This document shows positions 24,712-47,663 of a stretch of DNA of 64,000 nucleotides, one piece after another. Numbering within the stretch: position 1 is the first letter of the stretch; each line of letters starts with the position of its first letter. The notes below the pieces were generated by a model. The model was not told the origin of the DNA. It worked only from the letters and a program-made list of their open reading frames with translations, and ran no database searches. Location: positions 6,656,001 through 6,720,000 of the forward strand of contig CBDCXR010000004.1 in the NCBI GenBank assembly GCA_965223845.1, written 5' to 3'. This stretch comes from Planctomycetota bacterium (GTDB lineage: Bacteria; Planctomycetota; UBA8108; SXIK01). Position numbers and translations under genes: made by a program.

Positions 24712-27700
24712 CCCGGTCGAGCCGCGAGACCTCGATGCCGGACACGCAAGGGATCGACCTCTCGAGGCCCTCGGCACGGAAGAAAACAATGTCGAGAAAA
24801 CCGTCGTCGACCTCCGTGTCGATGACGCGAACGATCGGCTTTCCGAATCCGTGCGCCGCGGGCTCGAACGATTCGATCTCGCGATTGTCTTCCACCGCGA
24901 CGTCAAAGATGCGAGGCCACTTGAGCGCGCGTTCACCCGCGATGAAGTGGAGAGTCACGCGGTACTCTCCCGGCGGGACGGGGATGCCGTAGCCCGGCAG
25001 CCGGGTTCCCTCTTCGTTGAATCGTCGCTCGGTCTGATAGATCGGCCGGTGCTCGAGCTCGATCTGCGGTTCGTTGAGATCCGGAACGTAATCGAGCTCT
25101 CCGCCCCGGAAGAAGCGATCGTAGCTCCAGATCGCATCCTCGCGACGATAGTTGTCGCGCGCGCCGCAGTTGATCCGGAGTGACTTCCCGGCGGCGAGCT
25201 GCTCGAGAAGCCAGTGCGCGTCGCGGGCGGAGTGAGGGAGCTCGGTGAGGTCGACCTCGCCGCGGGGAAATTCAGCGGCGAGTCGCTCGACGTCCATCTC
25301 CGCGTTGAACGCGGCCGCGAGCCATTCGTCCCAAACCGTCTCGCGCTTCGAGTGCCCCGATTCGAGTGCACGACGGAGCTCCGCCTCAGCGCGCGCGTGA
25401 TGTCCTAGCTGGGCGAGAGCATCGGCGAGCCGGAGAAACGGTTCCACATGGGCGGTGTCGGCGGCGAGGACGTCGGCGTACGCCTCGGCGGCGGCGTCCC
25501 AGCGGCTCTCCAGCTCGGCGATGCGGCCTTCGAAGTACTGCACGCGAGGGGTGTCGTCCTCGCGGGCGGCCGCGCGGAACGCAGCGAGCTTCGCGCGAGC
25601 GTCCGCGAGACGCTCGGTGGCAGAGATCTCAACGCTGACGCGGGCGTCTAGATAGAGATCGTCGTCGTCCGGCGCGGCGTTGAGGACGCGTACGGCGATG
25701 ACGTTCTCTCCGGCGCGGAGCCAGTCCGGAGGAATCGGGAGACGGTCGCTATACCAGAGATCGTGCCGGTACTGCGCGACCGCATCCGGCGCGACCGGTG
25801 TCCCCGGTTTACTCTCCAGGCTTCGCACGATCTCCCGGCCGTTCACGCATGCGACGTAGTCGTCGTCCATGCGAAAGTGGACGGCGTATCCTTCGCGACT
25901 CGATGCGTCGTCGAGCGTGAATCGCCACCGGGCGTAGAGCGACGCGGAGTTGCCCCGCATCGCGCTCACGTCCGTTCCGCCCGTCCGGCACTGCGGGTAC
26001 GCGAGGGGCGACGATCCCGTCGCCCAATCGTCGTCGCGGTATTCCGGCTCGATCCAGTTCTCGAGATCTCGGACTGAGTCGCCGATCGCGTAGCGGCACG
26101 TGGCATGCGCGGCGACCGGAAAGCGCGGCGCGTCGATCGCTGCGTCAACGGAGGCGTAACTGACGAGTCGGGGAGCGAGGTGCTCGCGGTCTTGCTCGAT
26201 GAGGGTCGTGATCGCTCGACTATGTGTATCGGTGAGCGAAGCTTTTTCGAGGCGGCGAAGCTGCGCCGCGACGGTGTCCACCTCGCCGAAGGGCTTCCGA
26301 TCTTGAAGGTGGATCTTCGAGTAGACGTGGTAGACGCCGTCGTAGTCGGGCGCGAAGGATTGAACCTTGTGGACTCGTTCGAGCGCCTCGTCGCGACGAT
26401 CCGCTTTGTAAAGAGTCTCCGTCAAGTACTTCCAGGGCGGGCACCAGTTCTCCGTGAGCTCGATGGTTCTCTCGTACGCGGCGATCCGTTCGCTCCGAAG
26501 AGCGGGGTTTCGTTCGTAAACGTTCCCGAGGCGATACCACGCCAGCCAACTGTCCGGATAGCGTTCGAGCGCGCTCTTGTACTCGGAGATCGCCTCGTCC
26601 TTCTTTCTCGCCTTGCGAAGGCACGAACCGAGATTGCACCGAACGAGCTCTCCTTCCATTCCGGCGGCCATCGCCGCGCGGTACTCGTCCGCAGCTTCAG
26701 CGAACATTCGCCGCCGCTCGAGAAGCCACGCGAGGTTGTAATGCGCGGCGGAGAGGGGCGCCGCGCCGCTCGTCGCGCGGCGATAGAGACCTTCTGCGCG
26801 GTGCGACTCGCCTCGCTCTTCGCAGATGGTTCCGAGGTGGTTGAGGGCGACGGATTGCTCCGGCGCGATCGCGAGGCTTCGCTCGAGCTCTGCTTCCGCC
26901 GCGTCGAGGTTTCCTCGCGCTTGGAGGGTTCGCGCGAGGCTGAGGCGCGCGCCGACGAAGCTCGAGTCGAGTCGAATCGCTTCGCGGAGCGACTTCTCCC
27001 CGCTCGCGAACTGTCCTCGGCGGGTGCGAGCGATGCCGGCGCCGACGAGCGCGGTGACGTTCCGCGGATCGCGGCGAGCGACGCTTTGATAGAGTTCGGT
27101 CGCGCGCTCGAGCTCGCCGCTCGCGAGCCGGATGTGCCCTTCGATGAGACTCGCACCGACGAGTCCGGGAGAAGACATCCGAACTTCGCGACAGACGGCG
27201 AGAGCTTCCTCGACCCGGCCGGCAGCGAAGAGCGCCCGTGAACGCTCGAGCTGGGCGGACGGGTCGTCGGAGAATCGTTCGCTCCACGCGACCGCGCGAT
27301 CGACGTCGCCGAGGTTGAGCAGCATCCAGGCGACGCTCCGCACAATCTCGTCCCGGCCCTCCGGCAGCGATCCGTCCGGCGCCACACGCCGGAGCAAGGC
27401 GTCCGCCTCCGTCGGTCGATCGAGGAGAAAGAGCGCCTTCGCGCCGAGGATCACTGGCTCCGCCCAACCATCGCGCAGGTTTTCTGCGGCAGCGAATGCA
27501 CGTGAGGCGATGACCGGGTCGCCGCGCTCGAGCTGCACGCGTCCGTAGTCGACGCGGCTTTGGAGGACGAGAAGATCAAGATCACTCTTCGGCCCCGACT
27601 CAATCGATTGCGCACTCACGGCGCCGAGCGCGGACGCGGCCGCCTCCCAGCGGGAGTCGAGCATCGCCCTCTGTCCGGCGACCCAGTGGCGGAGCCATGC

Positions 27701-29533
27701 GGGACCGGCAGCGAGTGCGCGATCTAGCTCGGCCGCGGCCGCGGTCGCCGCCGACGTGCGCTGGAGCCGAACGAGTGCTTCGTGACGCAGAAACTGCGCC
27801 GGCACGAACCTCCGATCCTTGGTGAGCGCGAGCGACGCGGCGGAATTCGCCGCGGCCGCTCGACCGCTCTCGAGGTGCGTGCGTCCGAGAAAGTAGTGCC
27901 CGATCGGGCGATCCGGCGCGAGGGCGATCGCGGCGCGAAACGAGGTGACGGCGCGTTCGAGCGGATCATCGGCGCCGGGCCACTCGAGCGCTCCCGCTTC
28001 GACGATCTCGGGGTGAGAGCGCAGAATCGGGAACCGATCGCCGAACGGTAGCTCGAGACGGAGCGGGTGGCGCCGTTTCCGATCTTCGAGGATTTCGTCG
28101 ACCGCCATTCTCTCGAGAGTCGCCTCGGGTCGCATTGCGACGCGCGCGAGCTCGGTGATCCCTCGGATCACGTGTCCTTCGTGTTCCGACTGAACTCGGT
28201 CGCGGTGGAGACTCCAGAACTGATTTCCCGCCGCAGCGCCGAGAGCGGCCAGGATCACGGTGAACGCGCCGATCGCGACCCCGACTCGGTGCCGCCGCAG
28301 CCAGTAGCCGATGCGATTCGCGCGCGTGAGGCGCGGCGTCTCACCGGGATCACCGCGCGCGATGCGAACGAGTTCTTCGCGCAGCGCCGCGGCGCTGCGG
28401 AAGCGCTCCGTCGGCTTCTTCCGGAGACACTTCATCGCGACCGCTTCGAGATCCGCCGAGACGTCGGGCGCGAGGCTCCTCACCGGTACGGGATCTTCGC
28501 TCCGGATCTTTCGCAGGGTCTCGAGGTCGTGCCGGCCCTCGAGTGGAGGACGGAGCGTCAGCATCTCGTAGAGCGTCGCACCGAGGCTGTAGATGTCCGA
28601 CGCCTCCTCGGCCGGCTGCGGCGGATCGGCGGCTTGCTCGGGGCTCATATAGAGGACGGTCCCGACGCGCTCGCCCGACTCCGTGAGACCGCTCTCGCCC
28701 TTGACGCGTGCGATTCCGAAGTCGAGGACTCGAAGATCGCCATCGGGACTCACGATGAGATTCGACGGCTTGATGTCGCGGTGCACGATGTCGTGGCTGT
28801 GCGCGTGATCGAGTCCCGCCGCGGCGCCCGCGAACGCGCGCGCGAGCCAGCGGCAGTACGAGTCGTGCGGACTTCGCGCCTCTGTCGGCTCGGCCGGCGA
28901 CCAGCGGCCGCGCGAGTCGTCGGGGAAACGTTCCGTCTCATCGCCCCAAGTCGAGCCCGACGCCTCGAGCTCGGAGAGCACGTGCCGCCGGAACTCCGCG
29001 AGCGATCCTCCGCTCGACGAACCGCAGCGCTCCCCGAGCGTCTTTAGAGTCTCGCCCTCGGCGAGCTCCATCGCGTAGTAGGGAACTCCGCCCGCGACGC
29101 CCCCGGCGAGCACAGAAACCACGTTCGGATGGCGGAGCCGCGCGGCCATGAGGGATTCGCGGCGGAATCGCGCGCGCGCCTTCGGATTCGAAGCGAGCGC
29201 CGCCGGAAGAATCTTGACCGCCGCGTCGCGATCGAGCGAACGCTGTCTCGCGCGGCAGACGATGCCCATTCCGCCCGTGTCGAGGATGCCGAGAATATCG
29301 AAGTCGCCGAGGCGCTCGGGAAGTGGCGGATCTTCGGCGAGCGCGCGGAGCTCCTCGAGGACGTCGAGCTCGTCGGTGAGGTTGCGAGCGGCGTCCGGGT
29401 TCTCGCGCAGAACTCGCGCTAGCTCTCCCGAGCCGGCTCGCGCCCTCAGGTCGAGTAGCTCGGCTAGGCGCAGCGCATCGTCGCGCTTCTCGGCCTCGTC
29501 TTCGGGATCACGAGGAGGATGACGATCGGACAT
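24698..29533 (-). CDS. Hanks-type Ser/Thr kinase with TM segment, TPR repeats, beta-sandwich domain and C-terminal malectin-like domain
   Basis: GGMGIV, AAVK, HRDIKPSN, DFG, GTVLYMSPEQA, SDIYSLG; TPR helices; RINCGA..WSYDRFF..YQTER..YRVTLHF..RIFDV. Confidence 0.93.
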   Translation of the reverse strand: MSDRHPPRDPEDEAEKRDDALRLAELLDLRARAGSGELARVLRENPDAARNLTDELDVLEELRALAEDPPLPERLGDFDILGILDTGGMGIVCRARQRSLDRDAAVKILPAALASNPKARARFRRESLMAARLRHPNVVSVLAGGVAGGVPYYAMELAEGETLKTLGERCGSSSGGSLAEFRRHVLSELEASGSTWGDETERFPDDSRGRWSPAEPTEARSPHDSYCRWLARAFAGAAAGLDHAHSHDIVHRDIKPSNLIVSPDGDLRVLDFGIARVKGESGLTESGERVGTVLYMSPEQAADPPQPAEEASDIYSLGATLYEMLTLRPPLEGRHDLETLRKIRSEDPVPVRSLAPDVSADLEAVAMKCLRKKPTERFRSAAALREELVRIARGDPGETPRLTRANRIGYWLRRHRVGVAIGAFTVILAALGAAAGNQFWSLHRDRVQSEHEGHVIRGITELARVAMRPEATLERMAVDEILEDRKRRHPLRLELPFGDRFPILRSHPEIVEAGALEWPGADDPLERAVTSFRAAIALAPDRPIGHYFLGRTHLESGRAAAANSAASLALTKDRRFVPAQFLRHEALVRLQRTSAATAAAAELDRALAAGPAWLRHWVAGQRAMLDSRWEAAASALGAVSAQSIESGPKSDLDLLVLQSRVDYGRVQLERGDPVIASRAFAAAENLRDGWAEPVILGAKALFLLDRPTEADALLRRVAPDGSLPEGRDEIVRSVAWMLLNLGDVDRAVAWSERFSDDPSAQLERSRALFAAGRVEEALAVCREVRMSSPGLVGASLIEGHIRLASGELERATELYQSVARRDPRNVTALVGAGIARTRRGQFASGEKSLREAIRLDSSFVGARLSLARTLQARGNLDAAEAELERSLAIAPEQSVALNHLGTICEERGESHRAEGLYRRATSGAAPLSAAHYNLAWLLERRRMFAEAADEYRAAMAAGMEGELVRCNLGSCLRKARKKDEAISEYKSALERYPDSWLAWYRLGNVYERNPALRSERIAAYERTIELTENWCPPWKYLTETLYKADRRDEALERVHKVQSFAPDYDGVYHVYSKIHLQDRKPFGEVDTVAAQLRRLEKASLTDTHSRAITTLIEQDREHLAPRLVSYASVDAAIDAPRFPVAAHATCRYAIGDSVRDLENWIEPEYRDDDWATGSSPLAYPQCRTGGTDVSAMRGNSASLYARWRFTLDDASSREGYAVHFRMDDDYVACVNGREIVRSLESKPGTPVAPDAVAQYRHDLWYSDRLPIPPDWLRAGENVIAVRVLNAAPDDDDLYLDARVSVEISATERLADARAKLAAFRAAAREDDTPRVQYFEGRIAELESRWDAAAEAYADVLAADTAHVEPFLRLADALAQLGHHARAEAELRRALESGHSKRETVWDEWLAAAFNAEMDVERLAAEFPRGEVDLTELPHSARDAHWLLEQLAAGKSLRINCGARDNYRREDAIWSYDRFFRGGELDYVPDLNEPQIELEHRPIYQTERRFNEEGTRLPGYGIPVPPGEYRVTLHFIAGERALKWPRIFDVAVEDNREIESFEPAAHGFGKPIVRVIDTEVDDGFLDIVFFRAEGLERSIPCVSGIEVSRLDRVTDN

Positions 29534-30230
29534 CGCGGTTCCGCCCCGTCCAGCTCGACTTAGCGCTCAGTGAGCGATCGCGCGGAAGGCTGAAGCTGTC
29601 AGTCGGGCCGAATCTCCGCCGCAGCTTCTGAAGGGCTCTTTTGAGGCGCATGGAAGTCGCCTCGCGAGTGAGACCGAGGCGCCGAGCCATCTCATTGACG
29701 GGCAGGTTCTCGATCTGAGTCATCAGGATGAGAGTTCGGTCGGCCTGCGGCAAACCGGCGAGCGCGCGCTCGAGGCGTTCGAATCGCTCCGTCTGCCGGA
29801 TGCGCGTTCCCTCCGTACTCCCTTTACGACGAGTTGGGTAGACCGAATCGTCGAGTTTTTTCGGGTTACCAGGCGCTCGCTTTCCGGTCTTGAAGTAGTG
29901 GCGGTCGTGATTGCGGATGACGTTCTCCGCCACACTCGCCAGCCAGCGGCGGAAGGTCGCGTGGGCCTTCGTTCGCGAGCTGTCGCCTTGCCACTTGAAC
30001 GAATCGATCGCCTTGATGGCCTGAAGGAGCGCATCCTGGACGACGTCCTCGACGGTTTCTCGCGTGCGGAGGCGCGGACCGAGTCGCGCGCGCACGAAGG
30101 CTTCGAGGTGAGGTCTCTGCGCAACGAGGAGTTGCTGCGACGCCGCGCGGTCGCCGTCGACCGCGGCGAGAACGAGTTTTTCTTCGCCGCGATCGTCGTG
30201 TCGCGGAGAAGAACGTGACGACCGTTGCAT
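29508..30230 (-). CDS. ECF RNA polymerase sigma factor coupled to the kinase gene
   Basis: EDVVQDALLQA..FRRWL (region 2) and LERALAGLPQADR..MARRLGLTREATSMRLKRAL (region 4); overlaps the kinase start. Confidence 0.92.
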   Translation of the reverse strand: MQRSSRSSPRHDDRGEEKLVLAAVDGDRAASQQLLVAQRPHLEAFVRARLGPRLRTRETVEDVVQDALLQAIKAIDSFKWQGDSSRTKAHATFRRWLASVAENVIRNHDRHYFKTGKRAPGNPKKLDDSVYPTRRKGSTEGTRIRQTERFERLERALAGLPQADRTLILMTQIENLPVNEMARRLGLTREATSMRLKRALQKLRRRFGPTDSFSLPRDRSLSAKSSWTGRNRDVRSSSSS

Positions 30231-32377: not shown

Positions 32378-33367
32378 ATGAAAGCGAACTTGACGGCACC
32401 TGCTATCGGCGCGACTCCGTACTCGAGAGGACTCGACGGCATCCTCGAGCGCATGCGCGGAGGAGATGTGGACGGCGGCATGGGCGAGCTCTTTCGCTCG
32501 CTCAAGTCGTGGCGCGCGAACGCCGCCGGAGACTGGGAAGACGTGATCGAGCGCCAGTGTCTCGCGCATCCGGTCGCCGACGCGATCTTTCAGGATCCGA
32601 TGGCGTTTCATTCCTACACTCGGCCCCGGGGATATCCCGGCGACGCTGAGCTCCTCGACTACATCTACGGACTCAAGGCGAGCGAGGTCGCGACGAACGC
32701 ATCGCCTCTCGGTCGCGCCGTGCACGAGTTTCTGTACGACGCGCCGGCGGCCCGAGCGGTGAGAGCGCGTCGCGAGGTGCTCGCGCGGCTCGTCGATGAA
32801 ACCGCCGCACGGGTAAAGAACGCTCGTGTCCTGTCGATCGCCGCCGGACACCTTCGCGAAGCGGCTCTCTCGAGCGCCGTGCGTGAAGGAAGGCTCGGCG
32901 AGTACGTCGCGCTCGACCAGGACGAGCGCAGTCTCGAGGAGATCGAGGCGAGCTACGGCTCTCTCGGCGTGCGAACGGTTCCGGGCTCCGTACGCGATCT
33001 CCTCGCTGGACGCGTCGAGTTCGCGGGCTTCGATCTCGTCTACGCGGCCGGGCTCTACGACTACCTCCAGCAGCGCACGGCGCGCCGGTTGACTCGCATC
33101 ATGTTCGACGCGCTTCGGCCGGGCGGGAGACTCCTCGTCGCCAATTTTTTGCCGGACATCGGCGACGTCGGCTTCATGGAGAGCTACATGAGCTGGCAGC
33201 TGATCTACCGGTCGCGCCCTGAGCTCCTCGACGTCGCCGAGGAGATCCCCATCGCGAGTCACGATCGGCTCCGGCTGTACACCGAGCGAAGTCGCTCGAT
33301 CCTCTTCCTCGATGTCGAGCGGAACGAAGAGAGGAGGGCGAACGATGCTTGCGAAGGAGATCTTTAA
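32378..33367 (+). CDS. Class I SAM-dependent methyltransferase, PhcB-like (3-hydroxy fatty acid methyl ester synthase-like)
   Basis: SYTRPRGYPGDAELLDYIY, VLSIAAGHLRE, ALDQD, FDLVYAAGLYDYL, LRPGGRLLVANF, MESYMSWQLIYRS. Confidence 0.8.
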   Translation: MKANLTAPAIGATPYSRGLDGILERMRGGDVDGGMGELFRSLKSWRANAAGDWEDVIERQCLAHPVADAIFQDPMAFHSYTRPRGYPGDAELLDYIYGLKASEVATNASPLGRAVHEFLYDAPAARAVRARREVLARLVDETAARVKNARVLSIAAGHLREAALSSAVREGRLGEYVALDQDERSLEEIEASYGSLGVRTVPGSVRDLLAGRVEFAGFDLVYAAGLYDYLQQRTARRLTRIMFDALRPGGRLLVANFLPDIGDVGFMESYMSWQLIYRSRPELLDVAEEIPIASHDRLRLYTERSRSILFLDVERNEERRANDACEGDL

Positions 33368-34412
33368 TCTCGGCGGGCGCTCGACGCCGCGCGGGCTCGC
33401 GATCTTCGCCTTCGATGCGGCGCTCTACCTCGCCATCACTGCGGCCATCGTCCGGGTCGACTCGCTCTGGCTGAAGCTCGCGCTCGGCGTCGCCGGAGGC
33501 TTCGCGATCGGGTTTCTCTTCCTTCTCGGGCACGACGCCTGCCACCAGAGCCTCACGCCGCGGAAGCGGCTCAATCACGTCCTCGGTCGCCTTGCGTTTC
33601 TGCCGAGTCTCCATCCCTTCAGCCTTTGGGATCTCGGGCACAACCGCGTCCATCACCGCTTCACGAACCTGCGCGAGAAGGACTACGTCTGGGCGCCGCT
33701 CACGCTCGAAGAGTACGAGCGAGCGAGCCGCTGGCAACGTTTAGTCTATCGCTTCTACCGCACGCCGATCGGTTGTCTCTGCTACTTCCTCGTCGACATC
33801 TGGTGGCGGCGCATGTTCGCGTACGAACTGACGGTGAAGAGTCGCACGTGGACGTATCAACTCGATCGCGCCCTCGTCGCGGTGTTCATCGTCGCGCAAG
33901 TCGCGGGGATCTGGACCCTCGATCGCTGGTTCCATCCCGGTGCGGCGACCGGCGCGGGGCACACCGTGATCCTCTTCGGCAGCGCTCTCGTCCTTCCCTT
34001 CCTCGTCTGGAACGCCCTCGCGTCGTTTCTCATCTACCTCCACCACACGCATCCGACAGTGCGGTGGTACCGCGAAAAGAGCGACTGGGCGCGCGCGAGC
34101 GTGCAGCTCGAGAGCACGGTCCACACGGTGTTTCCCGGTCCGATCAATTGGCTCCTCCACCGGATCATGGAGCACACCGCCCACCATGTGAATCCGGCCA
34201 TTCCCTGCTACCACCTGAAAAAGGCGCAGGATTACATCGTCCGCCATCATCCCGACCAGGTCGTCGTCGAGCGGTGGTCGCTCCGGAAGTTCCTCGACTC
34301 CGTCCGACGCTGCAAGCTCTACGACTTCGATCGCGGCGTGTGGACGGACTACGAGGGGCGAGTGACGTCGGTATCCGCGGCGGCACCGGCCGAGACCGCA
34401 GCGAGTGCTTGA
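33345..34412 (+). CDS. Membrane fatty acid desaturase (DesA/omega-6-like)
   Basis: Three His boxes HDACH, HNRVHH and HTAHH; TM segments; GAGGAGG RBS; overlaps the methyltransferase 3' end. Confidence 0.93.
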   Translation: MLAKEIFNLGGRSTPRGLAIFAFDAALYLAITAAIVRVDSLWLKLALGVAGGFAIGFLFLLGHDACHQSLTPRKRLNHVLGRLAFLPSLHPFSLWDLGHNRVHHRFTNLREKDYVWAPLTLEEYERASRWQRLVYRFYRTPIGCLCYFLVDIWWRRMFAYELTVKSRTWTYQLDRALVAVFIVAQVAGIWTLDRWFHPGAATGAGHTVILFGSALVLPFLVWNALASFLIYLHHTHPTVRWYREKSDWARASVQLESTVHTVFPGPINWLLHRIMEHTAHHVNPAIPCYHLKKAQDYIVRHHPDQVVVERWSLRKFLDSVRRCKLYDFDRGVWTDYEGRVTSVSAAAPAETAASA

Positions 34413-34414
34413 TC

Positions 34415-37400
34415 ATGGTCTACCCGACGCTGAACGGATCCTCCGCGCGGTTGATCGCACCGCGCGACCTAGACGAGTACCTCGAGCTCTACCGGGCGAT
34501 GGTGATGGCGCGCGCGCTCGACGAAGTGGAACGCGCGCTCGTCGAACGCGGCGAGGCGCACTTCCACGTGAGCGGCGCTGGACACGAGGGCATCGCCGTC
34601 GCGAACCGTCACCTCGAACCGGAGGATTGGCTGCATCCCCACTACCGTGACAAGGCGCTTCTGCTCGCGCGGGGCGTTCCAGTCGTCCGGTTTCTCGACG
34701 CGCTCGTCTCGAACGCGCGATCGCATTCCCGGGGACGCCAGATGAGCGCTCACATGAGCGCGCCCGAGCTCCGCGTCCTGAGCACGGTCGGTCCGGTCGG
34801 AAACAACGCGCTGCAAGCGGTCGGAGTCGCCGCCGAGGTCGCGCGCGGGCCCGGGTCGCCGATCGTTTTCTGCAGCCTCGGCGACGGAACGACGCAAGAA
34901 GGCGAGGTTCTCGAGGCTGTCGCCGAGGCGGCGCGCTCGGAGCTCCCCGTTCTCTTCGTCGTCGAGGAGAATCGCTACGCGATTTCGACCGAAACCGCGG
35001 GCCGGACGTTCTACGATCTGCCGCGCGGACCCGCGTCGGAGCTCTTCGGCGTGCCGATTCTTCGCGTCGACGGCGCCGACGTCTCGGCGGCGGACCGCGT
35101 CCTCGGAGCCGCCATCGGTCGCATGCGCAGCCAGCGCTCGCCGGCGATCGTGATCTTCGAGGTCGAGCGACTCTGTAGCCACACGAATGCCGACGATGAG
35201 CGCGTCTACCGCTCGGAGAAGGAGCGGCTCGAGGCGAGGGAGTCGCGCGATCCGATTCCGGTTCTCGAGGAGCAGCTTCGGCGCTCGGGCGTCACGGAAG
35301 ACGCGCTCGGGCGCTTGCGCGACGAGGTCACAGAGTCGCTCAGCGAGGCGACGGCGTCCGCGCTCGCGGTGGGGGATCCCGAGCCCGCGCTCGACGCTCG
35401 TCCCGCCGCCTTGGCGTCGATGGGTCACGAGTACCGAGGGCGAGAGAGCGGTGAGCAACGGACGATGCTCGAAGCGATGCGTTCCGTGCTCGAAGCCTGG
35501 CTCGAGTGCGATCCTCGCGTGTCGATCTTCGGAGAGGACATCGAAGATCCGAAGGGAGATGTCTTCGGACTGACGCGCGGGCTCAGCACGCGATTCGGCG
35601 ATCGCGTCCGCAATTCGCCCCTCAGCGAATCGACGATTGTCGGGGTCGCCATCGGACGCGCCCTCGCCGGCGGACGACCTGTCGCGTGCATTCAATTCGC
35701 GGACTTCCTTCCCCTCGCGTGGAACCAGATCGCCGCCGAGCTCGGCACCATGGCGTGGCGAACGGACGGCGGCTGGGAAAGTCCGGTGCTCGTCCTCGCG
35801 CCCTGCGGCGGCTACCGGCCCGGGCTCGGACCGTTTCATGCGCAGACCTTCGAGTCGAGCCTCGCGCACGTTCCGGGCATCGACGTCGTCGTTCCGTCGA
35901 CCGCCGGCGACGCGGCGGGACTCCTGAACGCCGTGCTCGCGTCGAAGCGACCCACGGTGTTCCTCTACCCGAAGATCTGCCTCAACGATCCGTCGCGTTC
36001 GACGTCGAATGACATCGGCGCGCATTTCGTTCCGGTCGGCGTCGCTCGCCGCCTGCGTTCGGGCGACGATCTCACGCTCGTCAGTTGGGGGAGTACGATC
36101 CCTCTTTGTGAGCGGGCCGCACAGACGCTCTCGGAGGCCGGCGCGCGAGTCGATCTCTTCGATCTCCGCTCGATCGCGCCCTGGGACCGCGATGCCGTGC
36201 TCGAGTCGGCGCGGCGGACGCGCCGGCTTCTCGTCGTTCACGAGGACAACGCGACGTGCGGATTCGGCGCGGAGATCGTCGCGACCATCGCGGAGGCTTG
36301 CCCCGCGGTCGAATGCCGTCGGGTGACTCGTCCCGATACTTACGTTCCGTGCAACTTCACGAACCAGATCACGGTCCTTCCGTCGTACCGCTCGATCGTC
36401 TCGGCAGCGGCGGAGCTGGTCGATTTCGAGCTCGAGTGGCGGGATCGCGAGGTCGACGCGAGCGACGAGGTGATCGTTCCGGCGCATGGATCGAGTCCGG
36501 CGGATCAGTCGGTGAGCGTCGTCGAGTGGCTAGCCGCGCCCGGCGACGAAGTCGAAGCGGGAGCGACGATCGCCGAGGCCGAGGCGGACAAGGCGGTCTT
36601 CGAGATCAAAGCCCCGCGTCCCGGAACGATCCGGCGGCTCTGCGTCGGGCCGGGCGAGACGGTGCGCGTCGGAGAACCTCTCTACGCCCTCGAGGCCGTC
36701 GGCCGCGAGCTCGCCGGTCGACGGGCCGGGCGGGCGAGGGCGCGTCGTGAGCGGCGCGGGAACGAATCCCCGCACCTACGCCGACGTCCGCGTCGGGGCG
36801 ATGCGCCGCGACCCGGGACTCTCGCTGAACCGGCAGCGGAGCGGACCGGCGTCGTTCGGCTGGCGCCTCCGTGCTGCGCGCTCGGTTCCCGCATCGTGAC
36901 GAACGAAGAGATCGCGGCTCGGTTTCCCGATCGGAGCGCCGAGGACATCCGAACTCGAACCGGTATCGAGCGCAGGCGGCGCGTGAACGCTGACGAAGAC
37001 GCGTTCGCGCTCGCCGTCCGCGCGAGCTCTGCTGCGCTCGAGCGCGCCGGGCTCGCCGCGTCCGATCTCGATCTAGTCGTCTGCAGCACGACGACTCCGC
37101 CGCTCGCGAGCCCGACGCTCGCGTGTCGAGTGCTCGATGCGCTGTCGGAGTCGGGTCGCGCCTACGCGGAGGCGTACGACCTCAACGCCGCCTGTTCGGG
37201 GTATCTCTACGCGCTCGCGAGCGCATACGACTTTCTCTCTGCGCGTCGCGCGGGGATCGCGCTCGTTCTCACGGCCGAGGTACTCTCACCGGTCCTCGAC
37301 GAGGCAGATTTTGCTACGAGCATCCTCTTCGGCGACGCAGCATCGGCGACGATCCTTCGCGCGGGTCTCGAAGCGGGCGATGCGCGCAGCGCGGTCGGCT

Positions 37401-37843
37401 GGACCGTGAGCGGACGGCCGTTCGTGACGGCGCGCGGCGAACGTGGGTCGCTCCTCCGTGTTCCGCACGCTGGGGCCGGCTTCGCGAGCATGCAGGGTCG
37501 ACGCGTCTTCGGCGAGGCGGTGCGCGCGATGAGCGATGCCCTTCACCGGGCCGCGAGCGCTGCGGGCAGCTCGGTCGGTGATCTCGACTGGATCGTGCCG
37601 CACCAGGCGAACTCTCGGATCATCGAGGCGGTGACGCATCGCCTCGGGGGCGATCCGGTACGCGTCGTCGACTGGATCCGCGACTGGGGGAACACCTCTT
37701 CGACGAGTATCCCCCTCTGCCTCGAGAGGCTCGCGCTCGAGCTCGGCGGCGGCGAGAGACTGGGGCTCTGCGCCTTTGGTGGCGGGCGGACCGCGGGGGC
37801 GGCGGTGCTCGAAACGAGACGGACTGGCCCTCCGGGTGCGTGA
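34415..37843 (+). CDS. Fused 2-oxoacid dehydrogenase E1alpha-E1beta, lipoyl domain and FabH-type ketosynthase (KAS III)
   Basis: ATG 34415, just after the desaturase stop; ThDP motif GDGTTQEG..EENRYAIST; E1beta FGEDI..NSPLSESTIVG..QFADF; lipoyl EADKAVFEI; KAS III DLNAACSG, HQAN and GNTSS. Confidence 0.92.
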   Translation: MVYPTLNGSSARLIAPRDLDEYLELYRAMVMARALDEVERALVERGEAHFHVSGAGHEGIAVANRHLEPEDWLHPHYRDKALLLARGVPVVRFLDALVSNARSHSRGRQMSAHMSAPELRVLSTVGPVGNNALQAVGVAAEVARGPGSPIVFCSLGDGTTQEGEVLEAVAEAARSELPVLFVVEENRYAISTETAGRTFYDLPRGPASELFGVPILRVDGADVSAADRVLGAAIGRMRSQRSPAIVIFEVERLCSHTNADDERVYRSEKERLEARESRDPIPVLEEQLRRSGVTEDALGRLRDEVTESLSEATASALAVGDPEPALDARPAALASMGHEYRGRESGEQRTMLEAMRSVLEAWLECDPRVSIFGEDIEDPKGDVFGLTRGLSTRFGDRVRNSPLSESTIVGVAIGRALAGGRPVACIQFADFLPLAWNQIAAELGTMAWRTDGGWESPVLVLAPCGGYRPGLGPFHAQTFESSLAHVPGIDVVVPSTAGDAAGLLNAVLASKRPTVFLYPKICLNDPSRSTSNDIGAHFVPVGVARRLRSGDDLTLVSWGSTIPLCERAAQTLSEAGARVDLFDLRSIAPWDRDAVLESARRTRRLLVVHEDNATCGFGAEIVATIAEACPAVECRRVTRPDTYVPCNFTNQITVLPSYRSIVSAAAELVDFELEWRDREVDASDEVIVPAHGSSPADQSVSVVEWLAAPGDEVEAGATIAEAEADKAVFEIKAPRPGTIRRLCVGPGETVRVGEPLYALEAVGRELAGRRAGRARARRERRGNESPHLRRRPRRGDAPRPGTLAEPAAERTGVVRLAPPCCALGSRIVTNEEIAARFPDRSAEDIRTRTGIERRRRVNADEDAFALAVRASSAALERAGLAASDLDLVVCSTTTPPLASPTLACRVLDALSESGRAYAEAYDLNAACSGYLYALASAYDFLSARRAGIALVLTAEVLSPVLDEADFATSILFGDAASATILRAGLEAGDARSAVGWTVSGRPFVTARGERGSLLRVPHAGAGFASMQGRRVFGEAVRAMSDALHRAASAAGSSVGDLDWIVPHQANSRIIEAVTHRLGGDPVRVVDWIRDWGNTSSTSIPLCLERLALELGGGERLGLCAFGGGRTAGAAVLETRRTGPPGA

Positions 37844-42037: not shown

Positions 42038-43441
42038 ATGGATCCACACCACAGCCCGGCAAACCCGCCGCCCGTTCACGCCGAGAACCGGCAGGCCGCG
42101 CTTGAGCTCCTGATTGCCGCCGACAAGGGCGGGGAGTTCATCGATGCACTTCTCGCTCGCGCGTACGATCAGGTGACGAAGCGGAATCGCCCGCTCCTTC
42201 AAGAACTCACGTACGGCGTGATCCGGCATCGCGGCACGCTCGACGTGCTCCTCGACTTCCACCTCCGCGCACCGCTCAGGCGACAAGAGCCCGCCATGGC
42301 TTGGGCGCTTCGACTCGGCGCCTACCAGCTCGTCTACTTGACGAAGATTCCGGCGCACGCCGCGGTCTACAACACGCTCGAAGCGCTCAAGCGGATCGGG
42401 AACTTCAACCGCAAGGCGATCGGCTTCGCGAACGCGGTCCTGCACAAAATCAGCGCGGAGGTGCGCTACAAGACTCCGGAGCCCGCGGACGATCCGGACG
42501 ATCCCACCGTGCTTCCGATCCGCGCGGGGTACTGCCATCTCACCCGACCGGTGCTTCCGCTTGTCCGCCTCGATCTCGCCGGGCACATCGCGCTCAAGTA
42601 CTCGCATCCGAAGTGGCTCGTCGAGCGCTGGCTCGCTCGCTTCGGCGACGACGAGGCACGGAGACTCTGCGCTTCGAACAACGAGACGCCGGTCGTCACG
42701 GCGCGCGTGACGGCGCTCGCTCCCTCCGAGGAAGAGGTTCTCGCGTCGCTCGCCGAGGAGGAGTTCGAGGTCGAGCGAACCGATTGTCGCGGCGTGTTTC
42801 GACTCCGTCGCGGTGATCTCCATAGCGCTCGAGCCCGTCGAGAGCGCTGGATCCAGATTCAGGACGAAACCGCGGTCCGCATCGGACGCGAGCTCGCGCC
42901 GCCGGCCGGAGCACGCGTCGCCGACCTTTGCGCCGCACCAGGCGGAAAAGCGGTGCAGCTCCTCGAGTGCGTGGAGGGATCCGGCCAGCTCGTCGCACTC
43001 GACGCGAACGACGAGCGTCTCGCGACTCTCGAAGAAACGCTCCGGGGCTACGGATCGTCGTACCGGGTCGAGCGTGCGCCGTCCGATCCCGACGATCTCA
43101 CCCTCGAAGATCGATTCACGCACATCCTCGTCGATGCGCCGTGCTCGAACACGGGCGTTCTCGGTCGGCGGCCGGAGGCGCGGTGGCGGATTCGCGAGCG
43201 CGATCTCGAAACGCTTCCGGAGCTCCAGGGAAAGCTCCTCGAGGCGGCCTATCGTCACCTCGAACCAGGCGGGCGACTCCTCTATTCGACCTGCTCGATC
43301 GAGCCCGAAGAGAACGAAGGCGCAATCGCGAGGTTCACCGCGGCGCACGACGATCTCACCGAGCTGAAGACCGAGTACTATCTCCCGCACCGCGCCGCGG
43401 GCGACGGAGGGTTCTTCAGCTTGCTGCTTCGCAGCCGCTGA
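42038..43441 (+). CDS. rsmB: 16S rRNA m5C967 methyltransferase (NusB-like plus RsmB domains)
   Basis: ELTYGVIR..LRLGAYQL, YSHPKWLVERW, DLCAAPGGK, LVDAPCSNTG, YSTCS; directly after fmt. Confidence 0.92.
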   Translation: MDPHHSPANPPPVHAENRQAALELLIAADKGGEFIDALLARAYDQVTKRNRPLLQELTYGVIRHRGTLDVLLDFHLRAPLRRQEPAMAWALRLGAYQLVYLTKIPAHAAVYNTLEALKRIGNFNRKAIGFANAVLHKISAEVRYKTPEPADDPDDPTVLPIRAGYCHLTRPVLPLVRLDLAGHIALKYSHPKWLVERWLARFGDDEARRLCASNNETPVVTARVTALAPSEEEVLASLAEEEFEVERTDCRGVFRLRRGDLHSARARRERWIQIQDETAVRIGRELAPPAGARVADLCAAPGGKAVQLLECVEGSGQLVALDANDERLATLEETLRGYGSSYRVERAPSDPDDLTLEDRFTHILVDAPCSNTGVLGRRPEARWRIRERDLETLPELQGKLLEAAYRHLEPGGRLLYSTCSIEPEENEGAIARFTAAHDDLTELKTEYYLPHRAAGDGGFFSLLLRSR

Positions 43442-43451
43442 GGCGCGAGAG

Positions 43452-43739
43452 TCATCCGATGCGATCCGCCGGATGCGGCACGCGGTCGACGAGCGGCAGG
43501 ACCTGCGGCTGGTAGATCTCGGTGTACGCCTTCGCCGTGCGGTGGACGTCGAGCGCGTCCTGGTCGCTCCACCACTCGTTGAGGAGAAACACCCGGCGAT
43601 CGCTCTGCGAGTGGTAGACCTCGAAGCGCTCGCAGCCCGGTTCTTCCTGCGAGAGGCGAGCTTGCTCGCCGAGGAGGCCTTTGACGCGGTCGATGTCTGA
43701 TTCATCGCGGACGGTGAGAATGACGTTGACGTGGATCAT
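43452..43739 (-). CDS. ABM-family (putative quinol monooxygenase) protein
   Basis: SQEEPGCERFEVY..FLLNEWWSDQDALDVHRTA. Confidence 0.85.
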   Translation of the reverse strand: MIHVNVILTVRDESDIDRVKGLLGEQARLSQEEPGCERFEVYHSQSDRRVFLLNEWWSDQDALDVHRTAKAYTEIYQPQVLPLVDRVPHPADRIG

Positions 43740-43976
43740 GTTTGGTCTCGGTGCCTTATCCGTTCCCGACAAACTTCATCTTCCCTCTTCCCTTTTCCTC
43801 TTCTCGCCTGTTTCTCCGTGCGAACGTTGTTCCGGGCGCAAGCTGAATCCTAAGCGCATGGACTCCTCTTCGGGAACGGGAACGGGAACCGGAGAGCAAA
43901 ACCCATCCGACATTGCGCCGCACCGCCGACGCAGCGACAATCGGTGCTGGATCGGGGTCATTCAAGGAGTCCGCCA

Positions 43977-45419
43977 GTGTATTCGAAATCGCCCACTCTC
44001 GGTGCCATCGCTCTCATCGCCGGCTTTCTCGCGGCCGCATCCACTCGCGCCGAGGAGCCGGCCGTTCGCATCGGTACGAACGCGGGAGAGCTTCACCCCG
44101 ACGTTCTTCTTCCCACGATCGACGGCGGAACGCTCCGTCTCTCCGATTATCGCGGGAAGAAGATCTTCCTCTTTCACTTCGCCTCGTGGTGAGCGGGCTG
44201 CCGACGCATTCTGCCCGTGTGGCAGAAAACGCTCGCGCCTCTCGTAACGGCGGGGAAGATCGTCGCCATCGGGGTCGTTCAAGAGCAGCACGCCGATCGC
44301 GCGCGACTCTACCGTCAGTGGCGAGAGCTCGATTGGCCGATTGCGATCGACTCGCTCAATCTCCTGGGTCACCGTGCGGTTCCCATCCCGATGGGGATCG
44401 ACGAGCACGGCGTCGTTCGCACGCCGAAGCTGAAACCGAACGAGATCGAAGAGTTTGTCGCGCTCGAGTTCGCGGCCCCGGGTCCGCTCCCGAAGGAGTT
44501 CCGCGCAACGCTGCCAGACCCCATCGCGCTCGCGGCTCGCGCTCGTTTCGCGCTGACGGCGGAGTCGTGGTTCGATCTCGGCGATGCGCTCTTTCTCTTT
44601 GGCGGTGAGTCGCGTCTCGGTGCAGCGATCGACGCGTACCGCCGGGGTCTCGAACGAGAGCCGAACGCCGCCCGGGGGCAGTTCCGTCTCGGCGTCGCGC
44701 TGCGGCGTCGGCACGATTCCTACGGGAGGACGAAGGGTGACGCCCAGGCCGCGGTCGACGCGTGGGGACGCGCGCTCGCGCTCGATCCGGGACAGTACAT
44801 CTGGCGCCGGCGGATTCAGCAGTACGGACCGCGTCTCGACAAGCCCTACAACTTCTACTTTTGGGTCGAAGAAGCGCGAAAGGAGATCCGCGCGCGGGGC
44901 GGAGCGCCGATCTCGCTCTCCGCCGAGCCGCGTGGCTCGGAGATCGCACCGCCGCGGAGCTCGAGCGACGCCGAGGATCGCCTCGCTCCGAAGGATGTCG
45001 ATCCGAAGCGCGGCCTTCCCGTCGACCGGAAGCGCCTCGTCGGCATCGACACGATCGTCACCCCGGCGCGCATTCGACCCGGTGAACGCGTTCGCGTCCG
45101 CGTGATCCTCCGGCTAGATGCGAAGCAACGCCCGTACTGGAACAACGAGAGCGCGGGGCTCTCCGTTTGGGCGAAGGAGTCGGGCGAATTTCGCATCGAG
45201 GAGGGCGAGTTTCGCTACGCGCCGCCCAAGTCCCCCGAGACCCGCGAGGAACGGGTGCTCGAGTTCGAGGCGGCCGTCGGCGCGGAGGCGTCGGGTCGAC
45301 TGAGCATCCCCGCGTACGCCGCATACGATGTGTGTCTCGACGCCGAGGGAGTTTGCTACCGCTACCGGCAGGACTTCGAGATCTCGGTCGAGGTCGATCC
45401 GGCGGCGGCGAAGATCTGA
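43977..45419 (+). CDS. Predicted exported selenoprotein: TlpA/AhpC-TSA thioredoxin domain (UxxC), TPR and DsbD-alpha-like domain
   Basis: Track ORFs 43944-44192 and 44217-45419 are in the same frame, separated only by TGA 44190-44192. They read LSDYRGKKIFLFHFASW-U-AGC-RRILPVWQ. GTG 43977 has an AAGGAG RBS and signal peptide; C-terminal YDVCLDAEGVCY. Confidence 0.85.
44193..44236 (+). promoter_or_regulatory. Putative bacterial SECIS element
   Basis: TTCTGCC-CGTGT-GGCAGAA 7-bp hairpin (44209-44227); loop begins 23 nt past the UGA with G at loop position 2; lower stem GCGGGC/GCTCGC. Confidence 0.7.
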
Positions 45420-45430
45420 GGGACCAGGAG

Positions 45431-45561
45431 GAAGAGGTTCACACGAAGGACCGCGAAGAAAGACGAAGGGAGAGGTAAGAGTAGGGGGTGGGAGTAGGAA
45501 GGATGGAGAAAAGAGAAAGAGGTTCACACGAAGTCTGCGCGCTTCGTGTGAACCTCTTTCT
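45431..45561. repeat. REP-like palindromic element, possible bidirectional terminator
   Basis: Perfect 20-bp inverted repeat AGAAAGAGGTTCACACGAAG (45514-45533)/CTTCGTGTGAACCTCTTTCT (45542-45561) with 8-nt loop; near-identical direct copy at 45431-45448; lies between convergent genes. Confidence 0.8.
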
Positions 45562-45591: not shown

Positions 45592-46725
45592 TCAGTCGCT
45601 CGCGGTCGGTGCCGATTCCGGCGCCCCTGCCGGCTCGCGCTTTGGGGCGGGTGCCTTCTCCCGGATGAGCGGTTCGACTTTCGACTTGAGCTGCTCGTAG
45701 TTGTGGTATCCGCTCACGCGATGGCGCACGGCCCCGTCGCGTCCGATGAAGAACGTCGTCGGGAAGCCGCGGAGATTCGGGACGGCCCCCAGTCTCTCGG
45801 CGGTGATCATCGTGAGCGGGTAATTGATCTTGTTGTCCTTTGCGAACTGCTCGACGCGCTTCGTCAAGAAGTCGTTCGGAGGCTGTCGCTCCCACGTAAG
45901 CCCAATCACGGCGAAGCCTTTGTCTTTGTACTCGTTTTGAAGCTGGACGAAGTGCGGGATCTCCATCTTGCACGGCGGGCACCACGTTCCCCAGATATCG
46001 AGGATGATCACCTTGCCGGCGAAGTCTTTCTCCTTGAGCTCCTTGCCGGCGAGATCCGGAAGCCCGTACGCGAGACGAGAGATGCCGCGGAGGCTCTTCT
46101 TCACGATCGCCTCGAACGTCTTGTCGCTCTTGAGAGAGGCGAACGCCGGTTCGCGTCGGATCTGATCACCGTTCCAGTAGCCCGCAGCCACCGCGTTGTC
46201 GAGGGTCGCTAGCGCGGCTTTCGAATCTTTTAGATGCGCGAAATTGACCGACCGCCGGAAGAGCACGCCGGCGAGATCGGAGGAAAAGCCTCCCGGCTGG
46301 AGCTTCGGCAGCGCGTCGATCGCTTTCTGAAGCACTTCGTTCGACTTCTTGAACTCGCCCGCCGTCGTGTGGTGCTCGGCGATGAATCCGTAGACCGCGG
46401 TCTTGTTCGCGTCCGCGGCCTTCTCGAGCTCGCCGTTGAGAAATGCGATCGCGGCGGCGTGGTCGCCGCTGGCGGCGAAATTGTTGTGCGCGCGCTCGAC
46501 GATGAACGGGCGGTTTGCGTTGCCGGCGGGGAGGATCTTGAGGATCTCTTCGTAACTTTTGTGCGCCCCGGGCCGGTCGCCGGCCTCCTCCTTCTGCCGG
46601 GCAGTTCCGAAGAGCTGCTGCAGCTTCTGAATGTCTTCTTGGCTGAGCGGGTTTTCTTGGGCGGAGACCGCCGCGGGCGCCACGCTCGCGCAGACGAGGA
46701 GAAACCAAGCTCGGAAAAGTTTCAT
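45592..46725 (-). CDS. Exported TPR plus TlpA-family thiol-disulfide oxidoreductase
   Basis: Signal peptide; TPR-like helices; DFAGKVIILDIWGTWCPPCKMEIP; RGFPTTFFIGRDG. Confidence 0.92.
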   Translation of the reverse strand: MKLFRAWFLLVCASVAPAAVSAQENPLSQEDIQKLQQLFGTARQKEEAGDRPGAHKSYEEILKILPAGNANRPFIVERAHNNFAASGDHAAAIAFLNGELEKAADANKTAVYGFIAEHHTTAGEFKKSNEVLQKAIDALPKLQPGGFSSDLAGVLFRRSVNFAHLKDSKAALATLDNAVAAGYWNGDQIRREPAFASLKSDKTFEAIVKKSLRGISRLAYGLPDLAGKELKEKDFAGKVIILDIWGTWCPPCKMEIPHFVQLQNEYKDKGFAVIGLTWERQPPNDFLTKRVEQFAKDNKINYPLTMITAERLGAVPNLRGFPTTFFIGRDGAVRHRVSGYHNYEQLKSKVEPLIREKAPAPKREPAGAPESAPTASD

Positions 46726-46913
46726 GAAAGACTCCGTCGGGGGGCGGTTCAGGGGAAATCGCCGGGGCGGGTGGTGATCGCGCCCGGTCCTTGTTTATAA
46801 CGGTTGCGCGCGTCGCGAAGTTCGGCTTTTTTCGCGGAACTCGGCTTCTCTCGAGCCGAATCTTGGGACTGTGGCCGAGGATCCCGAAGAACGGACAGGG
46901 GGTCGAACCCGAA

Positions 46914-47663
46914 ATGGCGGAGCAGAGAACGATCGTCGGTCCCACCCCTCGCGCCGCCGCTCTCCAGGCGGGGCGGATGCTCCGCCGCGCGTGCGACGAG
47001 GCGACCGGTGCGCGCGTTCGTGTCGTCTTCGCCGGCGGGACGACCCCGCGCGTCGTCTATGAGCTCCTCGTCGAGAAGTACCGCCGCGCGATTCCGTGGG
47101 AGCGCCTCGAGGTGTTCTTCGGTGACGAGCGCTCCGTCGGTCCGGAGGACCCCGAGTCGAACTTCGGTCTCGCCGAGCGCCACCTCTTTCCCGCCGTCCC
47201 GATTCCGCGCGAGCAGATTCACCGCATGCGCGGCGAGGCGGAAGATCTCGACCGCGCCGCCTCCGAATACGAAGAGAGGGTGCGGACGCTCGTTCCCCCC
47301 GGGAGCGCGGGCGTGCCGATGTTCGATCTCGTCTGGCTCGGCTTCGGCGCCGATGGCCATGTCGCGTCGCTCTTTCCGGGCACGCGCGCGTGCGACGAGC
47401 GCGAGAAGCTCGTCGTCGCGAATCCCGTCCCCGCGCTCGAGACGACGCGGCTCACGATGACGCTTCCCCTCCTCAGCGCCGCGCGCCGAGTACAGCTCCT
47501 CGTGACGGGCGAAGAGAAGGCGACCGCGATCGGCGACTACTTCGTACGTCGATCGAGCGAGTCACCCGCGCGTGCGATCGCGCCGGCCGACGAACTCGAG
47601 TGGGTTCTCGATCGGGCCGCGGCGACTGAGCTCACGCGGGACCTCTACGCCGATATGGAGTGA
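46914..47663 (+). CDS. pgl: 6-phosphogluconolactonase
   Basis: AGGTTP, FFGDERSV..SNF, FDLVWLGFGADGHVASLFPG, RLTMTLP, TGEEKA. Confidence 0.93.
   Translation: MAEQRTIVGPTPRAAALQAGRMLRRACDEATGARVRVVFAGGTTPRVVYELLVEKYRRAIPWERLEVFFGDERSVGPEDPESNFGLAERHLFPAVPIPREQIHRMRGEAEDLDRAASEYEERVRTLVPPGSAGVPMFDLVWLGFGADGHVASLFPGTRACDEREKLVVANPVPALETTRLTMTLPLLSAARRVQLLVTGEEKATAIGDYFVRRSSESPARAIAPADELEWVLDRAAATELTRDLYADME

Follow-up and report, generated by a model that had tools for sequence, protein, structure and literature searches.

An in-frame TGA in a thioredoxin-type active site very probably encodes selenocysteine in an exported redox protein family found mainly in Planctomycetota

Does a TGA codon that falls on the first position of a thioredoxin-type active site end a gene, or is it read as selenocysteine (Sec, U)? 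We investigated this question for positions 43977 to 45419 of a 64,000-nucleotide stretch of a Planctomycetota bacterium genome (GenBank assembly GCA_965223845.1, contig CBDCXR010000004.1, positions 6,656,001 to 6,720,000), hereafter the window. The plus strand carries a single frame from GTG 43977 to the TGA at 45417–45419, and the lone internal stop is a TGA at 44190–44192 in the context F-A-S-W-[TGA]-A-G-C-R, the first position of a W-C-x-x-C motif. Reading the sequence at these positions confirmed the placement and the other sequence-level statements given by the original prediction, a description of the DNA letters that had called the locus a hidden selenoprotein with Sec at the attacking position. 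That proposal is strongly supported by a TGA found in 81 of 81 sequences, a covarying hairpin behind it and the domain matches. The locus split at the internal TGA very probably encodes a single exported Sec-containing redox protein of a large uncurated family, mainly from Planctomycetota. The elements of the gene are as follows.

43977..45419, plus strand: whole predicted selenoprotein gene of 480 codons followed by a TGA stop, with Sec as codon 72 (translation with TGA read as U; tblastn matches in 80 loci that cross the TGA; full-length AlphaFold2 model).
43964..43969, plus strand: Shine-Dalgarno-like AAGGAG, 7 nt 5′ of the GTG start (sequence reading).
44190..44192, plus strand: internal TGA codon predicted to specify selenocysteine (U72), at the attacking position of the motif W-U-A-G-C (TGA in 81/81 sequences; the modelled helix 73–91 begins directly after it).
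44199..44201, plus strand: TGC, the predicted resolving Cys75 of U-x-x-C (invariant in 24/24 aligned full-length proteins).
45417..45419, plus strand: terminal TGA stop of the selenoprotein gene (translation).

GTG 43977 was preferred as the probable start over the upstream GTG 43944 because AAGGAG lies 7 nt before it. Translation with table 11 gave an 82-aa open reading frame (ORF) at 43944..44192 and a 400-aa ORF at 44217..45419 in the same frame, which agrees with the predicted continuation of about 400 codons beyond the TGA. The same break was found in public records. In a word-indexed search of 5.8 billion proteins, 8000 candidates were scored and 2012 of them matched at E ≤ 1e-3. Among the 120 matches listed of these 2012, the homologues were approximately 370–470 aa long and covered approximately 76–84% of the query, and the usual name of the homologues of approximately 400 aa was hypothetical protein. 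The 21 database homologues aligned with the query all started at or within 3 residues of the post-TGA P-V-W-Q, or later. This clustering of starts just after the TGA indicates that gene callers stopped at the same place everywhere. The Sec site was covered by none of the 67 proteins matched by a search restricted to residues 30–160, and no correctly annotated Sec form was found in the protein database searches. As had been anticipated for genes of this kind, table 11 and all public gene calls examined split the gene at the TGA.

Conservation of the codon was determined at the genomic level. A scan of 185,579 species genomes yielded 87 confirmed relatives; 80 loci were kept, giving 81 sequences together with the window. 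The 80 loci belonged to Planctomycetota (66), Verrucomicrobiota (3), Hydrogenedentota (2), Sumerlaeota (1) and Acidobacteriota (1), with no phylum assigned to 7. The codon between W and x-x-C was TGA in 81/81 sequences and never TAA, TAG, TGC or TGT, and tblastn similarity continued across the TGA in all 80 loci, in the same frame on both sides. The original prediction had named tblastn as a check and homologues that never carry TGA or Cys here as the contrary outcome; the matches of the relatives crossed the site, and the codon was TGA throughout. The Pfam AhpC-TSA match of the window protein (residues 37–126) likewise spans Sec residue 72.

If the TGA were a true stop, the locus would be a pseudogene or two genes, one for an exported peptide of 71 residues and the other for a tetratricopeptide repeat (TPR) protein of 400 residues, as in all public gene calls examined. 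Such a stop would, however, cut the thioredoxin fold inside its active site, and both halves are conserved in one frame in 81/81 sequences from five phyla. The downstream piece lacks a conserved start: among the 80 loci, the nearest in-frame start codon (ATG, GTG or TTG) beyond the TGA fell at 10 different offsets (1–39 codons), and 2 of the 80 had no in-frame start within 60 codons. Nor does this piece have the signal peptide that its partner half has. A pseudogene would not keep TGA to the exclusion of TAA and TAG, and would not keep a covarying hairpin. We consider termination at this codon extremely improbable.

The hairpin that follows the TGA is best described together with the base pairs that vary most informatively in the gap-free alignment of all 81 sequences (A2), in which columns 31–35 pair with columns 41–45.

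44209..44227, plus strand: SECIS (selenocysteine insertion sequence)-like hairpin, core stem 44211–44215 / 44221–44225 with two weaker outer pairs (full stem 44209–44215 / 44221–44227) and loop CGUGU at 44216–44220 (81-sequence alignment, RNAalifold).
Pair 31–45 (81 sequences): GC 33, CG 26, AU 10, UA 1, GU 5, UG 2, unpaired 4.
Pair 33–43 (81 sequences): GC 61, CG 2, AU 3, UA 9, GU 5, UG 1, unpaired 0.

The stem begins 16 nt 3′ of the UGA and is 5–7 bp long, and the loop has 5 nt. The local stem, taken with its two weaker outer pairs, was paired in 88.2% of cells, compared with 75.1% in shuffles (0/500 shuffles as high), and double-sided changes occurred in 63 cells against 20.3 expected. The stem covariation was 0.343 versus 0.107 in shuffled alignments (0/500 as high), and slid controls gave 0.019–0.120. 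RNAalifold independently gave the same 5-bp core. Column 33 falls on the third, synonymous position of a codon for L/V/I; four codons further on, column 43 opens a codon for Q/H/N/D/Y. Since constraints on the protein do not account for the coupling of these two columns, it indicates selection on RNA structure. The loop was CGUGU in 47 of the 80 loci, GGUCU in 18, CGGGU in 11 and a one-off variant in 4, with G always second and U always last; the window has CGUGU. The SECIS-like hairpin claimed from the single sequence is thus borne out by the covariation of its relatives. The single-sequence minimum-energy fold preferred an alternative in which GGCAG pairs with CUGCC, located upstream in the Gly-Cys codons (columns 18–22 with 41–45). 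We rejected this pairing, for which no covariation was observed (0.134 versus 0.145 shuffled; pair 18–45 unpaired in 53/81). Bacterial SECIS elements, in the description given by the accessible part of PMC1088965, lie immediately 3′ of the UGA and carry a conserved G in a small apical loop. The conserved UGA, the downstream hairpin with its invariant loop G and the compensatory stem form this arrangement.

Several observations weigh against the proposed Sec-containing redox protein. The window sequence alone folded no better than chance (z −0.72, with 40 of 200 shuffles folding as well; z −0.86), the hairpin is short with a core of 5 bp, and Rfam gave no match for the whole window at gathering thresholds or for 44150–44300 at E ≤ 10. 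A scan of 49 ORFs in the 64-kb window, which also contained no tRNA, found no domain of selA, selB or selD, and no tRNA-Sec was found in the 60 flanking loci scanned. Cys occupied the Sec position in one distant homologue only (P0247); Sec/Cys pairing is nearly absent from the family, with Ser found instead. No conserved neighbour of the ccdA or dsbD type, as an electron source, was found in the 81 loci. In regards to the machinery, the Sec trait does exist in the phylum Planctomycetota, because complete selA/selB/selD (Sec-insertion) gene sets in four planctomycetes are reported in the portion of PMC4807772 that was available. In regards to the active site, the ResA/TlpA family at large has Cys at the Sec position according to the profile and Foldseek matches.

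Hairpins located behind stop codons are also able to promote readthrough, and UGA might be read without Sec, either in a reassigned code (UGA as Trp or Gly) or by hairpin-stimulated near-cognate insertion of Trp or Cys; the lack of sel genes in the 64-kb window would fit this explanation. The terminal stops of the 73 complete orthologues were TAG in 29, TGA in 28 and TAA in 16. Because 28 of these 73 genes and the window gene itself end in TGA, this codon normally serves as a stop in these genomes; the code is not reassigned, and recoding is confined to the one site. Trp or Gly at this site would kill it, and if Cys were wanted, TGC or TGT is one mutation away, yet neither occurs in any of the 81 sequences. 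Moreover, in a CxxC motif this is the position of the catalytic Cys, for which Sec is the known substitute in many thioredoxin-fold UxxC families (Table 1 of PMC13188914, as far as that source was accessible). Readthrough without Sec is accordingly given a very low probability, and we conclude that genuine Sec decoding at TGA 44190 is highly probable on comparative sequence evidence.

What kind of protein, then, would the continuous frame encode? The predicted domains are listed below; A3 denotes the alignment of 24 full-length orthologues.

43977..44051, plus strand: predicted Sec-type export signal peptide, residues 1–25, with K4, hydrophobic LGAIALIAGFLAAA and T-R-A followed by EE (sequence inspection).
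44064..44471, plus strand: TlpA/ResA/CcmG-like thioredoxin-fold domain, residues ~30–165 (Pfam, PDB profile, Foldseek).
44520..44825, plus strand: TPR region, residues ~182–283, six helices (family profile against PDB; modelled helices).
44796..44864, plus strand: most conserved segment of the family, Y-I-W-R-R-R-I-Q-Q-Y-G-P-R-L-D-K-P-Y-N-F-Y-F-W, residues 274–296 (invariant columns in A3; recognisable in non-Sec relatives).
45024..45395, plus strand: C-terminal beta-sandwich domain, residues ~350–473 (AlphaFold2 of residues 335–480, Foldseek).
45333..45356, plus strand: invariant Cys pair C453...C460 (C-x6-C) in the turn between the last two strands (alignments A3 and A4).

The AlphaFold2 model of the full-length protein on A3 had a mean predicted local distance difference test score (pLDDT) of 90.0 and a predicted template modelling score (pTM) of 0.88. 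The model consists of a signal helix, a thioredoxin fold, six TPR-type helices (182–283), two more helices with an ordered linker, and an eight-strand beta-sandwich (355–473). The signal region was modelled as a low-confidence helix (7–20), and the homologues share hydrophobic N-termini; the protein is probably exported by way of the predicted signal peptide. In the thioredoxin fold, the first long helix (73–91) starts immediately after U72. Pfam matched this domain with AhpC-TSA (E 4.6e-09, 36.7 bits against a cut-off of 26) and Redoxin (E 3.7e-06), and PDB profile matches of the 24 orthologues were pneumococcal Etrx proteins, ResA, TlpA, StoA and CcmG. The best Foldseek matches of model residues 30–165 were Bacillus ResA structures (E 1.3e-08; template modelling (TM) score normalised to target 0.75–0.78).

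AhpC-TSA, the top Pfam name, raises a peroxiredoxin reading. Peroxiredoxins carry the motif P-x-x-x-T-x-x-C, with Thr or Ser at C-3. We rejected this reading on the basis of the W-U-x-x-C at a helix N-terminus, the Ala at U-3 in place of Thr or Ser, and the ResA-type structural neighbours. A thiol-disulfide oxidoreductase function is likely.

For the window protein alone, the Pfam TPR families scored below the gathering score over residues 196–273 (TPR_11, 23.2 against 26.8). The family profile matched PDB consensus TPR proteins with E 2.4e-34 and 3.8e-20, and Pfam TPR families were found in up to 19 of the 24 members. TPR_CcmH_CycH matched 5/24 members (best E 1.5e-4), which, together with the ResA/CcmG-like fold, would fit apocytochrome handling; this is a weak hint to which we attach low weight. 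The segment that follows contributes the invariant A3 columns Y274, R277, R278, R279, Q282, G284, K289, P290, Y291, F293, Y294 and W296, and further invariant columns are F68, A69, S70, W71, U72, C75, R76, C453 and C460. The originally proposed exported TlpA-like UxxC protein with TPR is therefore upheld by Pfam, PDB profile and Foldseek for its domains and by sequence inspection for its export.

The C-terminal domain was modelled separately (residues 335–480, 41 sequences), giving eight strands with a pLDDT of 95.6. In the AlphaFold2 model, C453 ends strand 440–453 and C460 starts strand 460–473. Among 75 translations, the spacing of the pair was C-x6-C in 53 and C-x5-C in 19, and the 3 exceptions were two truncated copies and one protein with a long tail. 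At two loci (L022, 1095–2231, and L052, 4001–4618), the family gene is shortened by an extra in-frame stop after the Sec site while tblastn similarity goes on; these extra stops point to frameshifts, assembly errors or decaying copies.

The domain had been likened to the redox loop of the DsbD N-domain. Of this claim, YDVCLDAEGVCY is present at residues 450–461, and a beta-sandwich with an invariant Cys pair is found there; homology to DsbD_N was not supported. Pfam DsbD_N (PF11412) was significant in 0/24 members, 2 of which reached E 0.062 at best. A profile search of all PDB sequences with this domain gave no DsbD chain and one unrelated match at E 1.4, and Foldseek against PDB gave no DsbD among the 50 matches listed of at least 500. 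The listed Foldseek matches were generic Ig-like/complement macroglobulin domains, cohesins, pilins and TRAP, with TM scores of 0.3–0.5. A search of the ESM Atlas gave unnamed clusters, one of which (rank 30, score 0.84) had DsbD_N on 11% of its members. Stand-alone relatives of the domain were also sought, and the 3 matches were all fragments of the same selenoprotein family. With Pfam, PDB profile and Foldseek all negative or weak, we dropped DsbD-alpha homology in favour of the term Cys-pair beta-sandwich; a functional analogy to DsbD alpha is possible. These negative DsbD results count against a redox relay between the two ends of the protein.

The Cys pair may instead be a structural disulfide or a metal (e.g. 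copper) site in a genuine selenoprotein oxidoreductase whose beta-sandwich and TPR only bind a substrate or partner. Exported Ig-like domains often carry structural disulfides, and TlpA-type proteins have copper-site proteins, for example Sco and CoxB, as their targets. The absence of DsbD from the listed Foldseek matches, where only generic beta-sandwiches appeared, and from the PDB profile search also favours this explanation. On the other side, the pair is invariant over orthologues of 35–60% identity while the residues between C453 and C460 vary freely, and both Cys vanish in exactly the relatives that lack Sec, with the beta-sandwich kept; a structural disulfide would have no reason to track the active site. 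We regard a purely structural or metal-binding pair as possible, on the unlikely side.

The relatives without Sec bear directly on this point. An exhaustive HMMER search of 1.84 billion representatives gave 316 proteins at E ≤ 1e-30, and the Sec-site region was covered by 10 of the 150 matches listed of these 316 (P0136, P0156, P0184, P0214, P0219, P0221, P0224, P0247, P0254 and P0250). The motif at the Sec site was W-S-x-x-C in 8 of them, S-S-A-S-S in 1 and C-x-x-S in 1 (P0247). No Cys-type orthologue was found in this listing or in the search restricted to residues 30–160. Both C-terminal Cys were kept in 0/9 full-length non-Sec relatives, P0247 keeping the first only, compared with 72/75 Sec forms that have the pair. 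The RRR-QQYGP segment was recognisable in all non-Sec relatives, and the beta-sandwich itself was kept. A quick, midpoint-rooted tree was made of 73 Sec and 9 non-Sec forms, leaving out the truncated L022 and L052 and the incomplete P0250. The non-Sec forms fell into two groups inside the family, so that the Sec label needs two changes, with Shimodaira–Hasegawa-like approximate likelihood ratio test (SH-aLRT) values of 93 and 89. Sec and the C-terminal Cys pair thus appear to have been lost together, possibly twice; in this quick midpoint-rooted tree the joint loss could represent fewer than two independent events, a further point against the relay. The joint loss is the best, though indirect, evidence that the two sites work together. 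Redox coupling between the U-x-x-C site and C453/C460, as in the originally proposed self-contained relay, is a tentative proposal that falls somewhat short of being probable. The non-Sec relatives are possibly redox-dead binders derived from the selenoprotein.

The proposed mechanism is as follows. SelB and Sec-tRNA(Sec) would bind the hairpin during translation, with selenocysteine inserted at UGA 44190, and the signal peptide would export the protein to the periplasm. There, Sec72 would attack substrate disulfides and Cys75 would resolve them, the pair cycling between the selenolate/thiol and selenenylsulfide states. Two further steps are less certain: a partner or substrate may be held by the TPR region together with the invariant RRR-QQYGPRLDKPY segment, and the beta-sandwich pair C453/C460 may serve as a built-in relay or acceptor through disulfide exchange with the U-x-x-C site. 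The relay would resemble the Ig-like DsbD alpha domain with its thioredoxin-fold partners, without demonstrable homology. Overall, we consider it likely that positions 43977–45419 encode one 480-residue exported selenoprotein.

A stronger version of this proposal is a Sec-obligate periplasmic redox module, in which the U72 selenolate and the dithiol of the beta-sandwich hairpin would form a self-contained selenenylsulfide/disulfide relay on a TPR scaffold. We put this version forward as a speculation that is rather doubtful. If true, the protein would perform chemistry beyond what a version with Cys could sustain under the oxidising conditions of the envelope. This would explain why no Cys orthologue was found and why Ser, with loss of the acceptor Cys, appears in lineages without Sec, where the protein would become a non-redox binder. 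It would also place the family among the most widespread selenoproteins of Planctomycetota, invisible in current annotation.

The annotation error is systematic, the family being truncated and called hypothetical in every public record examined, and automatic pipelines will keep splitting the gene because no NCBIfam model covers the family. The 316 representative clusters at E ≤ 1e-30 indicate that selenium use in Planctomycetota and neighbouring phyla is under-counted. The reasons for using selenium can also be studied in this family as a natural experiment: every orthologue examined has Sec, Cys occupies the Sec site in 1/10 non-Sec relatives, and the Ser variants lack the second Cys pair. 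Furthermore, the joining of redox domain, TPR scaffold and Cys-pair beta-sandwich within a single exported protein suggests a relay open to direct in vitro test.

The genomic context did not reveal a conserved neighbour or operon partner: in an all-against-all BLAST of 1471 flanking ORFs, the widest cluster occurred in 9/81 loci. The features next to the gene in the window are as follows.

42038..43438, plus strand: rsmB.
43452..43769, minus strand: small ABM-domain gene.
45514..45561, no strand assigned: perfect hairpin with T-runs, 20-pair stem and 8-nt loop, between convergent genes; likely bidirectional terminator (terminator scan).
45595..46725, minus strand: convergent Cys-type TlpA/Redoxin gene with W-C-P-P-C and a long N-terminal helical part.
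46791..47660, plus strand: 6-phosphogluconolactonase.

A 15-mer of the terminator stem is directly repeated approximately 70 nt upstream (region 45434–45561). A crude filter on G+C content at third codon positions (GC3) gave 27 other in-frame TGA candidates in the window, all resembling off-frame noise rich in Arg, Ser and Ala; the same filter missed the true site, so that its outcome carries little weight. Near the family gene at locus L016, ARAGORN called a tRNA of undetermined type with the four-base anticodon gtta (6840–6913, minus strand).

Elsewhere in the window, four further observations were made. A 1405-aa frame at 33626–37840 (plus strand) contains E1 dehydrogenase, transketolase-like, lipoyl and FabH (KAS III) domains, with a fatty-acid desaturase adjoining (33312–34409, plus strand); this may be an unusual fusion, or the mechanical ORF listing may have merged several genes. 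A giant protein of 2905 aa at 12158–20872 (plus strand) combines DUF7948 with SBBP beta-propeller repeats and TIG domains. At 24701–29533 (minus strand) lies a Ser/Thr protein kinase of 1611 aa, fused to many TPR and a C-terminal malectin domain, followed by an ECF-type sigma factor at 29511–30230 (minus strand). Finally, Kazal-type serine protease inhibitor domains occur in the bacterial protein encoded at 9003–9848 (plus strand).

How does the predicted protein compare with known systems? It shares with the ResA/TlpA/CcmG (DsbE) family (CDD cd02966; AhpC-TSA, Redoxin) the fold, the active-site geometry with the W-C-x-x-C position at the start of helix 1, and the exported location. In contrast to that family, Sec here would replace the attacking Cys, approximately 310 extra residues are fused (TPR, the RRR-QQYGPRLDKPY segment and the Cys-pair beta-sandwich), and the gene does not adjoin cytochrome-maturation or ccdA genes.

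The alpha domain of E. coli DsbD has two cysteines a few residues apart. The C-terminal domain resembles DsbD alpha (PF11412) in being a beta-sandwich with two nearby Cys on neighbouring strands, here known from a model and with putative redox activity. DsbD alpha works with thioredoxin-fold partners. The family protein lacks the transmembrane and gamma domains of DsbD.

The best NCBIfam match was NF041054 (WAxxUGC_long), likewise a Sec-containing TlpA-like protein (E 1e-18; residues 40–280 against model positions 84–316 of 354, from the thioredoxin domain into the TPR). Membership was rejected on the score (67.7 bits against a cut-off of 300) and on the motif, which is W-U-A-G-C (UxxC) and not U-G-C; moreover, a model of 354 positions is too short to include anything equivalent to the C-terminal beta-sandwich. 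A 2026 inventory of 119 prokaryotic selenoprotein families (PMC13188914) lists, in its Table 1, several thioredoxin-fold UxxC families defined by their redox domain, for example the Prx-like thiol:disulfide oxidoreductase, the thiol-disulfide isomerase-like, the Redoxin and the UGC-containing TlpA families, the last of which corresponds to NF041054. To judge from the accessible portions of PMC13188914, PMC1088965 and PMC2398784, the thioredoxin-fold UxxC selenoproteins have the same Pfam/CDD domains and the same UxxC motif as the protein described here. By those descriptions, the definition of the listed families rests on Sec/Cys pairs and on no domain but the redox domain, and none is described with TPR and a Cys-pair beta-sandwich, which sets the present family apart. 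Earlier selenoprotein pipelines required Sec/Cys pairs, according to the part of PMC1088965 available, and the window family is nearly without such pairs. Short reads of the family may have been counted within the broad marine categories of PMC2398784, as these are presented in the accessible part of that paper. In the literature searched, we found no description of a selenoprotein combining thioredoxin fold, TPR and Cys-pair beta-sandwich, and the motif name WAxxUGC was likewise not found. Thioredoxin-fold UxxC selenoproteins as such are already known; what is new here is the family with TPR and a Cys-pair beta-sandwich.

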